This document shows, one piece after another, positions 12,601 to 17,300 of a stretch of 35,743 bases of DNA. The notes beneath the pieces were generated by a model. It was not told the origin of the DNA. It was given only the letters and a program-made list of their open reading frames with translations, and searched no databases. The translations under genes and the position numbers were made by a program. The stretch comes from Thermoanaerobaculia bacterium (GTDB taxonomy: Bacteria; Acidobacteriota; Thermoanaerobaculia; Multivoradales; UBA5704): NCBI GenBank assembly GCA_036277235.1, contig DASUNJ010000528.1, positions 1 through 35,743 on the forward strand. Reading direction: 5' to 3'. Each line of letters begins with the position of its first letter. The stretch's first letter is position 1.

Positions 12601-14364
12601 CGCGAGGCGCGATGGCTGCGACGGCCGATCGGCGAGAGCGCGCTCCACCTGCTCCGCCAGGGCGGCGACGGTGCTCGCCTCGAACACCGCCGAGGGCGGC
12701 AGGCCGACTTCGAGCGCCGCCTGCACCCGCGCCTGGATCTGGGCTGCGAGCAGCGAATCGCCGCCCAGGTCGAGGAAGCTCTCGTCGATCCCCACCCGCC
12801 CGCGCCCGAGCGTTTCTTCCCAGATTCCGGCCAACAGCTCCTCGGTCGGATTGCGCGGAGCCTGCGCGTCCCCGTCGGCGCTTCCCATCGGCCCCGGCGG
12901 GAGCGCGCGCTGGGCGAGGGCCTGGCGATCCACCTTGCGGTTGGGGGTCAAGGGGAGCGCGGGGAGCTCCAGGAAGAGGGCCGGTACCATGTGCGCGGGC
13001 AGCCGCGAGCGCAGGAAGGCCCGCAGCCCGGCGCCGGAGGCCTCTCCCACAAACCAGGCCACCAGGCGCTTCTCGCCCGTGCCGTCTCCCCGCGCCACCA
13101 CCACCGCCTCGCGCACGCCTGGATGGGCGGCGAGGGCCACCTCGATCTCCCCCAGCTCGACGCGAAAGCCGCGCACCTTCACCTGGTGGTCGAGCCGGCC
13201 CAGGTATTCGATCCGGCCGTCGGGCAGGGCGCGCCCGACGTCGCCGGTGCGGTAAAGGCGCGCGCCGGGCGTCTCCGCCCCCGGGTCGGGCACGAAGCGC
13301 TCCGCCGTCAGCTCGGGCCGGCCGAGGTAGCCGCGGGCCAGGCCGGCGCCGCCGAGGCAGATCTCCCCGTCGAGGAGACGGACCCAGGTGCCGGCGACCG
13401 GCTTGCCGATGGTCGGCTCGCGCGGGCTCCCGCGCTCCACCACCTCGAAGGTCGAGTAGGTCGTGTCCTCCGACGGGCCGTAGAGGTTCAGCACCCGCTC
13501 CACCTGCTCGGCACCGGTCGCGTAGACCGCCTGGGCCAGGGAGCCCTTGAGCGGCTCACCCGCGAGATTGACCGTCCGCACCCCGGCCGGGAGGGTCCCG
13601 GCGCGCACCAGCTCGGTCATGGCCGAAGGGACGGTATTGACCAGGGTGACCTCCCCGGCCGCCGGGAGCTGGGGCAGCTCCAGGACGTCGCGGGCGAGGA
13701 CCACCCGGCCGCCGCAGGCCAGGGGCACGAACAGCTCGAAGATCGAGAGGTCGAAGGAGATCGAGGTCGAGGCCAGGACCGCCGCCAGCTCCGCCGGGGT
13801 GAACACCTCGTGCGCCCAATGGACGAAGGCCACGGCGCTGCGGTGCTCGATCGCCACGGCCTTGGGGCGGCCGGTGGAGCCCGAGGTGTAGATCAGGTAG
13901 GCGAGGTTGCCGGAGAGGGCGCGGACGGGCTCAGCTTCCTCCTCCGTCTCATCCGGCTCGGCATCGAGCAGCAGCACCCGCGCGTTGGAAGCAGGCAGGA
14001 GCGCGGCGAGAGCCGGCTCGGTGACCAGGACCGCGATGCCGGCGTCCTCCAGCATGTAGCCGAGGCGCTCCTGCGGATAGTCGGGATCGAGCGGCACGTA
14101 GGCGCCGCCCGCTTCGAGGATGCCCAGGAGGGTCGTCACCAGCGCCGGCGACCGGCGCAGAAAGACCCCGACCCGCACCTCCGGCCCGACGCCGAGCGCG
14201 GCCAGCCGCCGGGCCAGCCGGCCGGCTTCGAGGGCCACCTCGCGATAGGTGAGGCGTCTGTCGCCGGCCACCAGGGCCACGGCCGCCGGGGTCCGCGCGG
14301 TCTGAGCGGCCACGAGATCGTGCAGGCACGCCGCCGCCTCCCGGGCGTCAGGCCGGCTGGGCAA
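622..14364 (-). CDS. Non-ribosomal peptide synthetase with four modules plus an extra terminal C domain and a thioesterase: A-T-C-A-T-C-A-T-C-A-T-C-TE
   Basis: 4580-codon ORF. Motifs read from the translation:
- Four A domains: LAYLIYTSGSTGRPK, LAYVIYTSGSTGRPK, LAYLIYTSGSTGRPK, LAYMIYTSGSTGLPK; GFR(I/V)E(L/P)GE(I/V)E; (G/R)KVDR or GKLDH.
- Four carrier domains: LGGDSL, LGGHSL, LGGHSL, LGGYSL.
- Four C domains: HHVIADGSS, HHAAFDGWS, HHVAGDGWS, HHIIVDGWS.
- C-terminal thioesterase: GGWSLGG ... GDH.
Module length leaves no room for E or MT domains. The putative TTG start at 14364 is preceded by GAGAGGA and overlaps the upstream stop by 17 nt; the exact start codon is uncertain. By-eye Stachelhaus positions for A1 and A3 give D-L-F-N-N-A-L-T-Y-K, which I recall as an Ala code (tentative). 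A4 looks Leu-like (DAW..G.VVK) and A2 looks hydrophobic or aromatic (very tentative). Confidence 0.97.
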   Translation of the reverse strand: MPSRPDAREAAACLHDLVAAQTARTPAAVALVAGDRRLTYREVALEAGRLARRLAALGVGPEVRVGVFLRRSPALVTTLLGILEAGGAYVPLDPDYPQERLGYMLEDAGIAVLVTEPALAALLPASNARVLLLDAEPDETEEEAEPVRALSGNLAYLIYTSGSTGRPKAVAIEHRSAVAFVHWAHEVFTPAELAAVLASTSISFDLSIFELFVPLACGGRVVLARDVLELPQLPAAGEVTLVNTVPSAMTELVRAGTLPAGVRTVNLAGEPLKGSLAQAVYATGAEQVERVLNLYGPSEDTTYSTFEVVERGSPREPTIGKPVAGTWVRLLDGEICLGGAGLARGYLGRPELTAERFVPDPGAETPGARLYRTGDVGRALPDGRIEYLGRLDHQVKVRGFRVELGEIEVALAAHPGVREAVVVARGDGTGEKRLVAWFVGEASGAGLRAFLRSRLPAHMVPALFLELPALPLTPNRKVDRQALAQRALPPGPMGSADGDAQAPRNPTEELLAGIWEETLGRGRVGIDESFLDLGGDSLLAAQIQARVQAALEVGLPPSAVFEASTVAALAEQVERALADRPSQPSRLAPIQPRPRDPGGEPLSSAQRQLWFVERLVPGVPVNNIPVVMRLEGPLAPAVLERCLTEIAARHQALRTTIEPGPDGEPLQLVAHPSPVRLPLVDLSGLPLLRRSAERERLARAEARQPLDPDRGALWRLSLLRAEETGHDLLLTLHHVIADGSSILVFERELEALYPAFLQGRPSPLPPPAVQPADVAAWEREELSAEVLAPHAAFFREHLEGTPRGLYLPADLPAGQARPAARSWRGVSRTLDIPPAISREVREFARRRGATRYMVLLAAWVALLRRITGQDDLVVGTVFAHRGRPELEGMIGYFANTLPLRVERPGDPAFGDLLATVRGRALGVFAHQDLPLETLAEVLRPQRASSADPLFQAFFAYRGNAGPRELAPGLTLAWSEEDHGAAQFDLLLDLEEKGEEIAGRLVASADLFTSATAGRMARGWLALLADALARPEAPLSDLALVGAAESHALLVEWSRSPSPPAWDGSVPARIAAWADATPEAMAVLPADPGARGLTYRELVQRARRLARHLRSRGVGLDVRVGVYAERSPETLVGMLAVLMAGGAFLPLDPAHPAERLARTLEDARVPVLLARTALAATLPTGEAELVPLEAKIVAFPFPLEEPLEEAAPEDLAYVIYTSGSTGRPKGVLIQHRGFLWAVEALAERSGVEPGSRVLQFASASFDASVWEIWSTLVRGATLVFARAEDLLPGQALLTTLLRRGITNVFLTPSALAAMPEEASQELSGLRGLVVGGEAFPPALVTRWAAGRRLWNAYGPTEASICVSMARLGEDGQTPIGRPVADSRLLVLGPHGEVVPQGVPGELHIGGRGLARGYLGRPDLTAAAFVPDPTGSTGEVAGQRLYRTGDLARFRPDGQLEFLGRADRQVKVRGFRIEPGEVEAQILDHPGVREAVVVPYEATPQDLRLAAYVAGPAAPSVQELRAFLRARLPEHMVPSFFTFLPALPLTPGGKVDRRALPPPTAEEPAAATGPVDSAVPSTPAEELLAGIWGEVLGRTEIGTGDDFFDLGGHSLLVGQVLARVRSAFGVDLPVRAAFETRILSALARRIKEARLAVAGGPEPAPLVPVPRDRALPLSFGQERLWFLHRLDPVSPVYNLPLAFRLTGPLDLGLLERSLDEVFRRHEVLRTTFAEGQDDEPLQVVAPFHAPGLPRVDLSGLPSATAAAEADRQIAREARRPFDLVRGPVARAALLQLDEQEHLLVFSCHHAAFDGWSVSVLRRELGALYGAFRAGRPSPLPELAVQYADLAVWQRYRLSEEFMAAQLAYWRQRLAGAPAALELPADRLRPPVQSFRGAVLPLAFPAELAAGLRSLARSEGSTLFMTTLAAFYALLGRFSGQTDLVVGSPVANRREAGSEGLLGFFVNTLALRADLAGDPPFRALAAQVRESALAAYAHQELPFERLVEELQPARDLSRSPLFQVMFSLDPLQDGELAQGLNCDLLRIDTGTSKFDLSLFVNGQGESLTALLEYSTDLFDAPTVARLGRSFLALLSSLVAEGTGRPVSRLPLLGAGESWQIRGEWHEPGPPAPLAPIAACMHDLVAAQAARTPEATALVAGRERLTYRDLDLRAGELARRLAALGVGPEVRVGVCLSRSPSLVVSLLGILKSGGAYVPLDPNYPRERLGFMLEDADAAVLITETALASRLPTSRARVLVLDGEPDRMEEEAEPILALPGNLAYLIYTSGSTGRPKAVAIEHRSAVAFIHWAHEVFTPAELAAVLASTSISFDLSVFELFVPLACGGQVVLAGNVLELPELPAAGEVTLINSVPSAVSALLELVQTLPDRVRTVNLAGEPLKGSLAQALYAIGAERVRNLYGPSEDTTYSTFETVERGSRREPTIGRPIAGTWARLLDRHLELVPVGVPGEIYLGGAGLARGYLGRPELTAERFVPDPLEPGARLYRTGDLGRLLPDGRIEYMGRLDNQVKVRGFRIELGEIETALEAHPQVREAVVVARGEPGGDRFLAAYVVPAGQPAPTPGELCEHLRVRLAEFMVPSSFTLLDAMPLTPNGKVDRKALPVPESGPAEPPASATSAIPLGAAAPFVELLAGIWAEVLRRDELPGPHDNFFELGGHSLLATRVVSRIRVALGIEVPLRTLFAAPTVSALAAALSALGHLPAEALPPAPIEPLADRENRPLSFAQQRLWLLDRLEPGSPVYNLPFPRLIRGPLAAAFLERALGEVERRHEVLRTTFAVDAESGEPRLTVAPPGGFFLPRIDLSTLPPQAGEAEAGRLADEDAASPFDLATGPLFRARLLTLGAEAHHLLMTVHHVAGDGWSINLLLGELSALYQAFAAGLPSPLQEPATQYADFAAWQRRWLDGPVLEEQLAYWRQQLAGAPEALDLPTDRPRPPVETSRGAHFLTSLPAAVTAGVRALSQHQGATLFMVLLSGFAALLERITGEKDLLLGSPVAGRGRAESEGLAGFFVNTLVLRVDLAGAPAFSALISRVRETALAAYAHQDVPFERLVEELQPERSLARSPLFQVSFVLGVDETARELAPGLSYTPLPVENHTAKFDLTLGLDLRGDTLVADFEFRTDLFDRSTVERWAAHFTHLLTSVAARPDVPLPEIDLFSAAERHQLVREWNDRRAWPASGLFVHELVSEHARRAPEALAVAAGGRRLSYSELDRRAVRLAHALRALGCGPEVRVGICLQRSPELAIAALAALKAGGAFVPLDPAHPAERLAYQLEDAQVTVLLAHRGPAADHAAQRGIHCLFPHEDEGNLEAATGDLTVPALLPGNLAYMIYTSGSTGLPKAVEIPHAGLMNLVRWHQSLYGVVPEDRATLVASPAFDASVWELWPYLAAGASLHIPDEETRLSPVRTVRWWAEQGITLTFLMTPLAEEVLVETLPPGLDLRVRALITGGDRLHRRPAAGAPFRLMNHYGPSEYSVVTTVAEVPPAERQGEALPALGRPIDNTRVYILDGHGEPVPLGVAGELYVTGRGLARGYHRRPGLTAERFVPDPFTAEPGGRLYRTGDLARCRRDGETEYLGRSDAQIKLRGFRIELGEVETALASHPAVEQAVVATHAYGPGDVRLVAWVVLAAEGLETGALLSWLGEKLPDFMVPAAIVVLPALPLTPNGKLDHRALPPPAAAPSQTAAEPPRSPLEELVAGLWAEALGRSTIGLHDHFFTLGGYSLLAIRVLARLRAVTGVDFPLRVIFANPTVATLAAEIERMLRVPGAQPLPPVEPARPEGTGADAPAAAAQERLWYFHQLDRSGSVLNVPNPLRLRGPLRPAALARSLSEIARRHASLRTTFFNGPEGLRQRIAQPSDLALPLADLSALPPARREDEARRATEAEAREPFDLAAGPLWRARLLRLEKEEHRLLLTFHHIIVDGWSVDLLERELSVLYPAFTHALPSALPEPELQYADFAVWQRRELTDERLAPQLDYWRRQLAGAPPVLDLPADRPRPLRPTFRGAARYLPLPPEVAAQTKELGRREGSTLFMTALAAFAALLGRYTGRTDLVLGSPAANRHVPGTEGIFGFFVGVLPFRLDLSGDPTFRELLQRARDSALGAYAHQDLPFERLVEDLGLARDKSRTPLVQVMLSVQNLSGEPLRFAGLAVEPVEVHSATSQFDFTLGIVDVPQGLTLQAEYSTELFEGATVGRMLQHLTRLLEAVAADPEVRLSALPAEIGPPKLVETQPVDTSNKPSAPADRGARLAARRAGLSAEERALLEQRLRARGAPRGESPPPATASLVALQPAGSRPPFFCVHPAGGDVLAFQALSRHLGPDQPFYGLQSRGLGPGEVPFNSIEEMAARYRAEITAASAGPYHIGGWSLGGAVAFEVARQLAAEDREVALLAIVDSTPGPWPRPAADQNEENESTGGDDTPWLLEIADYLERLWNLDLGLTAENLRGLSSEEQALRLLSGLKDTPFGAKAGPESLRRLLAVFKTNVRAFRRYRPGLYPGKITLFLPAETDTADDPTHGWGALSPWPVDIETVPGDHVSALAEPHVQALAERLRLCIDRSLTLELAKETRSK

Positions 14365-17300: not shown

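Follow-up and report, generated by a model that had tools for sequence, protein, structure and literature searches.

A hybrid polyketide synthase (PKS)-nonribosomal peptide synthetase (NRPS) gene cluster was analyzed on a stretch of 35,743 nucleotides from a Thermoanaerobaculia bacterium (GenBank assembly GCA_036277235.1, contig DASUNJ010000528.1), referred to below as the window. Two of its synthetase genes, gene 4 and gene 5, adjoin each other, and no condensation (C) domain lies between the last carrier (T) domain of gene 4, here called T(g4), and the adenylation (A) and T domains, A1-T1, with which gene 5 opens. The missing C domain is a genuine, selected feature of a family of hybrid PKS-NRPS lipopeptide clusters from uncultured Acidobacteriota (Holophagae, Thermoanaerobaculia). 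We tentatively favor the reading that A1-T1 is a converted initiation module and that the A-T didomain of gene 4 docks in trans into an empty slot between the last C domain (C4) and the thioesterase (TE) of gene 5, where two chains would converge on one carrier.

The junction between gene 4 and gene 5

Gene 4 (positions 14348-20680) encodes a protein of 2110 amino acids and ends with a stop codon at 14348-14350. The synthetase genes and the cluster neighbors all lie on the minus strand, to which the coordinates of genes, domains and docking elements refer, and are transcribed in the order gene 1, gene 4, gene 5. Pfam assigned the domain order ketosynthase (KS)-acyltransferase (AT)-T-C-A-T to gene 4, in agreement with an earlier interpretation made from the DNA letters and their open reading frames (ORFs), called here the sequence-only reading. 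T(g4) is located at 14438-14617 and has the motif LGGHSL. Its PP-binding match covers residues 2022-2081 and leaves a tail of 29 residues, ending in EDSVAQPA, which is shorter than the roughly 40 residues estimated previously.

Gene 5 (622-14364) encodes 4580 amino acids with the domain order A1-T1-C1-A2-T2-C2-A3-T3-C3-A4-T4-C4-docking helix-TE. Its translation start (14362-14376) comprises the sequence GAGAGGA (14376-14370), a spacer of 5 nt and a TTG codon (14364-14362), which is the earliest possible start codon after the in-frame stop in the gene 5 frame. With this start, gene 5 reaches 17 nt into the 3' end of gene 4, and the TTG as well as the GAGGA were conserved in the related contigs L001 and L041. 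As had been proposed, translation begins close before the first A domain: the start is about 13 residues ahead of the N-terminal helix of A1 (LHDLV, at residue 14), and the AMP-binding match begins at residue 20. At a canonical junction the downstream subunit carries a complete C domain with the HHxxxDG motif at its N-terminus; gene 5 has none. In the three reading frames around the junction no C domain of about 450 amino acids could be accommodated, and the frame of gene 4 consists of A-T up to the stop codon. Because that frame is filled up to its stop, a local frameshift cannot hide a C domain. The Pfam domains and the frame check thus agreed that the large NRPS opens with A-T and has no receiving C domain, and the check for sequencing frameshifts proposed in the sequence-only reading found no room for one that could conceal it.

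Relatives were collected by a scan of genome collections and a scan of metagenomes. The closest public ones were metagenome-assembled genomes of Holophagales, Thermoanaerobaculia and other Acidobacteriota, and the same junction was present in eight independent contigs of the cluster family from different projects (L001, L003, L041, L078, L079, L080, L081 and L082). None of the eight carried a functional C domain at the junction, which answered the proposed comparison with orthologous clusters. L001 was 84% identical to the window, with identical tail and junction. In L041 and L003 the carrier and its tail were followed by a stop codon and then by an ORF opening directly with an A domain, and in L081 and L082 the downstream ORF opened with a C-A linker, LLREWNDT, followed by the A domain. 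L078, L079 and L080 had kept only a catalytically dead C-terminal lobe (C-domain hidden Markov model (HMM) positions about 185-451 of 452) and lacked HHxxxDG; in L079 and L080 this remnant was also internally deleted. The downstream modules of L078 were colinear orthologues of C1, A2 and C2 with 70-75% identity. The gap at the junction is not an artifact; it is conserved and ancient. Because the relatives hold a C-lobe remnant, the C-A linker only or nothing, we infer that the family records the stepwise loss of an ancestral N-terminal C domain. Gene 5 would formerly have opened with a normal C-A-T module, and loss of the catalytic half of the C domain would have turned A1-T1 into an initiation module. 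One further contig, L002, with a 67% match to A1-T1, was rejected as a junction orthologue, since it was 81% identical to A3 and 78% identical to A1 and is the orthologue of module 3. A relocation of the lost N-terminal C domain to the position of C4 was unsupported, the remnant of L078 being equally similar to all C domains (47% identity to C4 versus 43-50% to the others).

The ratio of nonsynonymous to synonymous substitution rates (dN/dS) between the window and L001 was 0.04-0.38 in all segments but two. The exceptions were T2 (0.55 over 70 codons) and A4, of which the deletion in L001 leaves only 26 alignable codons. Values of 0.27, 0.23 and 0.27 were obtained for A1, T1 and C4, respectively. 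Because dN/dS was well below 1 and the ORFs of 2110 and 4580 amino acids are intact, the genes are not pseudogenes, and both proteins are maintained by purifying selection. The gene 5 orthologue of L001 (L001 9944-21766) cleanly lacks A4 and reads C3-T4-C4-TE. T4 was nevertheless under strong purifying selection (dN/dS 0.09), although A4 is gone in L001. The T4 of L001 must be loaded in trans, because it combines the lack of its own A domain with this strong selection.

C4, the thioesterase, docking elements and substrate codes

The C-terminus of gene 5 harbors a C domain in excess, as already recognized in the sequence-only reading. T4 (3061-3249, residues 3706-3768, motif LGGYSL) is directly followed by C4 (1684-2979, residues 3796-4227), which has the motif HHIIVDG. 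With Pfam profile positions 5-443 of 456 covered at 335 bits, C4 is a full two-lobe domain. Its best solved relatives were Txo2 (E 3.5e-90), Txo1 (4.7e-87), 5u89 and the T-C didomain of TycC; an X domain (4tx2) and the DCL-type domains of TycB1 and SrfA-C scored far below Txo2 and Txo1, and no epimerization (E) domain was among the solved relatives listed. C4 is, as judged by these similarities, a genuine elongation-type (LCL-like) condensation domain, and an assignment as E or X domain was rejected since its best solved relatives are elongation C domains. The TE (682-1446, residues 4307-4561), a type I thioesterase according to Pfam, contains the GWSLG and PGDH motifs. It resembled the terminal TEs of NRPSs (7crn, 4zxh, NocB, EntF and Vlm2) and the TE of Pks13 most closely among solved structures; by this resemblance it is classed as an ordinary type I terminal thioesterase and not as a type II editing enzyme.

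A terminal TE is expected directly after the carrier that it unloads. In gene 5, C4 and a linker intervene after T4, and between C4 and TE (residues 4230-4330, linker of 65-80 residues) no PP-binding match was found even at E<=1. The C-T-TE order of syringomycin synthetase SyrE, with a cis carrier between C and TE, is thus not present. Five proteins of about 1300 amino acids recovered as distant matches (P0019, P0032, P0051, P0056 and P0063) were apparent C-C-T-TE proteins without any A domain.

The tail of gene 4, VEDLLMEQIERERAACELREDSVAQPA (14351-14437), is acidic and predicted to be helical, and we regard it as a candidate C-terminal docking helix. It contains eight acidic and three basic residues (net charge about -5). 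In the comparison of the window with L001, 25 of 25 residues were identical, with dN = 0 while dS was 0.56, and the tail was conserved in L041, L003 and L078-L082. A single-sequence model of low confidence predicted that it extends helix 4 of the carrier as a single long helix. The statement that neither end shows a docking region therefore held for the N-terminus of gene 5, where an HMM of the N-terminal docking motif, run on all six frames of the window, detected no docking element; it did not hold for the constrained, predicted helical and acidic tail of gene 4.

The same HMM, built from 29 subunit N-termini, gave one significant match in the window, at 1516-1584 (score 14.5, i-Evalue 4.5e-4). 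This position is occupied by a basic helix, ARRAGLSAEERALLEQRLRARGA, with a net charge of about +5, which sits in gene 5 after C4 and ahead of TE, with Pro-rich linkers around it. The C4-TE linker contains RLAARRAGLSAEERALLEQRLRARG, matching the N-terminal docking motif IAxLSPEKRALLExRL. A second, weak match, LSPATRALL (window 215-241), was attributed to chance, as it falls inside the penicillin-amidase gene. The motif heads most of 47 related C-A-T-TE subunits and also stands at the head of C-starting subunits in L030, L038 and L077. In the window, in L001 and in the T-C-TE fragments P0001-P0005 of the family the helix was retained at the internal position between C4 and TE, that is, in the place that A-T takes up in a C-A-T-TE module. 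Within the family an N-terminal motif was encountered only on a separate TE ORF of L003. There, at L003 16436-16650, two tandem copies of the docking-helix segment are separated by a stop codon and a shift of frame. The duplication, which may be real or a long-read indel, splits the protein into a part ending in C-helix and a helix-TE part. The separate helix-TE ORF has the standard layout of a domain receiving a docked carrier.

A1 (12934-14307) has the specificity code DLFNNALTYK, which we take to be an Ala code, and T1 (12649-12837) has the motif LGGDSL. A3 (6520-8000) shares the code of A1. The two A domains were 78% identical in the A core only, as compared with about 48% for other A-domain pairs, which indicates a duplication or conversion of the A core. 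As evident from the A3, A8 and A10 Lys motifs of A1, the LGGDSL of T1 and the C1 domain with HHVIADG that follows, A1-T1 has the sequence features of an initiation module and is predicted to be one. A1 also carries a deletion of 11 residues before motif A6, which is present in the window and L001 and absent from L041 and L003.

The A domain of gene 4 (14708-16207) has the code DNETIGTIGK. The corresponding codes in six relatives were DTEDIGTVVK, DTEDIGSVVK and DTEDIGTVTK, the first of which agrees in 9 of 10 positions with the code DTEDVGTVVK of ScoA, predicted to activate Lys (10.1101/121228). In the ScoA system both amines of carrier-bound Lys are acylated (10.1101/121228). The gene 4 A domain thus appears to be Lys-type in the relatives, and for the window our guess is a diamino acid. 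The code of the window and L001 represents a recent shift of the substrate pocket. Literature searches for specificity codes returned nothing except for the Lys code.

Proposed convergent assembly and its alternatives

The cluster has two starts (FAAL-T of gene 1 and A1-T1), one TE and one unpaired C domain; therefore, either two chains are joined at C4 or C4 stands in for the lost C domain. In the convergent assembly that we favor, gene 5 would start a chain of its own, probably Ala-X-Ala-Leu, and carry it to T4, while genes 1 and 4 would build a fatty acyl-amino acid-diketide-(Lys-like amino acid) intermediate on T(g4). The acidic C-terminal helix of gene 4 would dock onto the basic helix between C4 and TE. 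T(g4), accompanied by its own A domain, would fill the empty A-T slot and create a split terminal module, C4-(A-T in trans)-TE, in which it would be positioned as acceptor for C4 and as substrate for TE. C4 would accept the tetrapeptide from T4, its canonical donor, and couple it to the diamino acid on T(g4), its canonical acceptor, through the second amine; the other amine would be acylated with the lipo-polyketide chain by the C domain of gene 4. A second amine would be available on T(g4) because the residue is Lys-type in most relatives. TE would free a branched or cyclized product from T(g4), and the PvdQ-like acylase encoded next to gene 5 would afterward remove the lipid. It is possible, and is proposed here with caution, that the internal docking helix replaced the A-T of the terminal module and that the A-T of the other line became a shared carrier, giving a hub of two C domains and one TE that makes a branched product. 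The sequence data establish the architecture with its conservation, the selection on every domain, where the docking-type motif lies and the Lys-type codes of relatives; from these, and by analogy with known systems, we deduce physical docking, the transfer direction at C4 and the product. Convergent assembly is preferred because every cis relationship stays canonical. The position of the helix, the order T4 then C4, the conversion of A1-T1 and the Lys-type A domain feeding T(g4) in relatives tilt the balance moderately toward it.

Several observations weigh against convergent assembly. The ends of the L078-type orthologues, which would date C4-helix-TE relative to the loss of the N-terminal C domain, were not recovered. 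A classifier for TE-feeding versus C-feeding carriers (cross-validation 95% and 99%) placed T(g4) and T4 with the C-feeding carriers and neither with the TE-feeding ones, a weak result that is confounded by linkers and phylogeny; every carrier of the family was classed as C-feeding, and the models were not discriminated. For two different C domains acylating one carrier-bound residue there is no exact precedent. Binding of the gene 4 tail to the internal helix is putative. A profile of tails with known partners gave the gene 4 tail scores of 11-15, with medians of 10 for negatives and 34 for positives, and did not separate it from other tails, and the AlphaFold model of C4-helix-TE was unusable, with a predicted local distance difference test (pLDDT) score of 39. 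Moreover, the window and L001 carry a drifted gene 4 A code, DNETIGTIGK, which retains Glu239 but not Asp278. In favor of docking, on the other side, the first-helix motif of the gene 4 tail was seen in 6 of 30 tails whose partner has the docking motif and in 0 of 77 others, a comparison made post hoc.

The main rival, a linear assembly with C4 as the source of the missing condensation, is in our estimation somewhat less likely than convergent assembly. T(g4) would serve as donor to C4, with Ala-S-T1 or the free N-terminus of the T4-bound tetrapeptide as acceptor. The chain would run from T1 to T4, and release from T4 by TE would yield a linear or cyclic lipo-hexapeptide-polyketide. The six aminoacyl carriers and six C domains balance only if C4 serves T1; however, T1 is located about 3800 residues from C4, and the docking element that could bring the N-terminus of gene 5 there is missing. 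C4 is an ordinary elongation-type domain closest to C2 (50.2% identity, compared with 48.0% for C3 and 43.7% for C1), and the A domain following C2 is A3, which is paralogous to A1 and shares its code. The C remnant at the start of gene 5 indicates that the ancestral pathway was linear, but the decaying remnant of L078 has no special similarity to C4, and its loss in steps resembles an elongation module turning into an initiation module. The classifier score of T(g4) was 97.3 with subunit-end carriers that feed a downstream C domain versus 80.7 with the TE-feeding class, and docking beside C4 fits a donor role equally well. In that role, however, T(g4) would compete with T4, which is tethered as donor of C4 and would be left idle, and 13 residues would separate it from a TE by which it has to be spared, while the TE lies a whole C domain away from its carrier. 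A separate chain started by A1-T1 and condensation by C4 in trans, the two possibilities offered by the sequence-only reading, both still lead, and the sequence evidence does not separate them decisively.

The remaining explanations were considerably less probable. It is improbable that condensation is provided by a protein encoded outside the window, for example a stand-alone C domain, or that two separate products are made, with a C4 that is vestigial or takes part in release. This reading is favored by the short reach of the window, which extends 625 bases beyond gene 5 and shows only the acylase gene there. On the other hand, neither the window nor the flanking regions of L001, L003, L041 and L078-L080 contained a stand-alone C gene, the wider genome not having been searched. 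Purifying selection acts on C4 as it does on C1-C3, and its HHxxxDG motif is intact; two lines would have to share one TE, and the features of tail and helix would be left unexplained. An iterative gene 5 in which C4 returns the T4-bound peptide to Ala-S-T1 of the same or a partner molecule has very little probability. Ala-X-Ala-Leu would be repeated, the gene 4 chain would enter once as an alternative donor, and TE would release the product after the repeats. Such a closed loop accords with T4-C4 as a canonical donor pair, with A1-T1 as the only acceptor in the cluster lacking a C domain, with the code shared by A1 and A3 and with the trans-loaded T4 of L001, which lacks its own A domain and implies a long-range interaction of A domain and carrier. 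It would need control of length by TE, is more complex than either alternative and finds no oligomerization or head-to-tail docking element at the N-terminus of gene 5. The probability that the gap is an artifact, whether through a frameshift, repetitive NRPS modules collapsed during assembly or a pseudogene cluster in decay, is close to nil. NRPS repeats can collapse in assemblies, A4 is missing from L001, and A1 has lost 11 amino acids; yet all eight independent contigs, which stem from different projects, show the junction, L001 and L041 preserve the start codon together with the ribosome-binding site, the flanks are fully occupied by T and A domains, and both ORFs (2110 and 4580 amino acids) are intact with dN/dS well below 1.

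Neighboring genes, known systems and implications

The G+C content of the window was 64-76%. Gene 1 (23783-33628), analyzed with Pfam and our own domain HMMs, has the order FAAL-T-C-A-T-KS-AT-ketoreductase (KR)-T and represents the lipo-initiation and first hybrid subunit. From its A domain (28660-30170) the code ASGSLGGVCK was extracted, in which Asp235, the binder of the alpha-amino group, is missing. A misalignment or a substrate other than a standard alpha-amino acid would account for this. Upstream of gene 1 are two small ORFs without family matches (33768-34406 and 34322-34948) and a gene for a hybrid histidine-kinase ATPase with response-regulator receiver (34945-35736). A small gene of the pyruvoyl-type S-adenosylmethionine (AdoMet) decarboxylase family (23206-23775) lies between gene 1 and a DUF5916/CBM9 gene (20688-23102, 804 amino acids), which is situated between the two synthetase genes. 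The AdoMet-decarboxylase-like gene was found in the window and L001 only and not in L041, L078 or L080. This confinement makes it unlikely that it supplies an amine for C4. The DUF5916 gene has a lower G+C content (0.64-0.68) and was kept between genes 1 and 4 in the window, L001, L041, L078, L079 and L080. Because its position is conserved in these relatives, it is regarded as a core member of the cluster, perhaps with a role in outer-membrane export. Look-ups of the exact sequences of the gene 4 and DUF5916 proteins gave no match, all homologues listed there being <=1385 amino acids long.

At the other end of the cluster, the first 208 codons of a penicillin-amidase (PvdQ-like) gene are present (2-625; Pfam PF01804, E 2.6e-60), and its ATG overlaps the stop codon of gene 5 (ATGA). 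The encoded N-terminal nucleophile (Ntn) hydrolase bears an N-terminal membrane anchor, and in L003 an orthologue with 74.5% identity directly follows the TE. The FAAL starter of gene 1 together with the coupled PvdQ-like Ntn-hydrolase suggests that the lipid is removed after export, following a pro-form logic. Pyoverdine is made according to this logic, with the acyl starter of PvdL and the Ntn-hydrolase PvdQ acting on a lipid pro-form. The cluster resembles it in the FAAL-type starter of gene 1 and the penicillin-amidase-family gene translationally coupled to the last NRPS gene; it differs in its unrelated scaffold.

The separate elements of the junction also have counterparts. In microcystin synthetase McyE ends in C and McyA starts with A, and viomycin and capreomycin synthetases contain A-T-C subunits. 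As in McyE/McyA and viomycin, the downstream subunit opens with A and a subunit ends in C. Unlike McyE, which has the C domain at the upstream end, gene 4 ends in T plus tail, and the unpaired C domain is found at the far end of gene 5 before TE. The terminal C-T-TE module of SyrE has no A domain of its own and is loaded in trans by SyrB1/SyrC. The terminal module of gene 5 likewise lacks its own A domain and would rely on another protein for the aminoacyl group. Whereas SyrE has its carrier in cis between C and TE, gene 5 lacks both A and T there, and the supply would be a docked A-T didomain with which a different assembly line ends. Bis-acylation of carrier-bound lysine is carried out by MxcG in myxochelin synthesis. 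The isonitrile lipopeptide NRPSs ScoA/MmaA/Rv0101 bis-acylate carrier-bound Lys as well (10.1101/121228). The Lys-type code in relatives of gene 4 resembles that of ScoA, and the use of both amines of a thioester-bound Lys as acceptors would be shared with ScoA and MxcG. There, a single C domain attaches one and the same acyl group two times before reductive release, in contrast to the two C domains, two chains and TE release proposed here. Helical pairs of C-terminal and N-terminal docking elements are known from carrier/condensation junctions, for example the PAX-type three-helix bundle (PMC9113145). The short acidic helix right after the last carrier of gene 4 and the basic helix of the LSxEKRALLExRL type in gene 5 are reminiscent of such pairs. 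They deviate in that the basic helix of gene 5 is internal, between C and TE, rather than N-terminal ahead of C, and in that the gene 4 tail has the first part only of the usual two-helix tails; by resemblance the pair may belong to the PAX class. Neither this cluster family nor an internal N-terminal-type docking helix between C and TE was described in the literature found. The parts, namely elongation C domain, type I TE, helical docking elements, FAAL and PvdQ-like acylase, are ordinary; the arrangement is not.

Genome-mining tools and structure predictors assume that a chain is handed over, in gene order, by way of a C domain that opens the following subunit. The family breaks this rule in a conserved and selected manner, in clusters from uncultured Acidobacteriota whose chemistry is almost unknown. 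If the helix recruits the upstream carrier, this would be a natural case of docking-mediated module completion in trans combined with convergent assembly. The predicted product would change from linear to branched, and the 25-residue helix pair would be a compact part for engineering branch points in synthetic assembly lines. The value lies in a concrete hypothesis of docking and convergence together with an evolutionary series rather than in demonstrated new chemistry, and the family constitutes a rare stepwise record of an elongation module becoming an initiation module.

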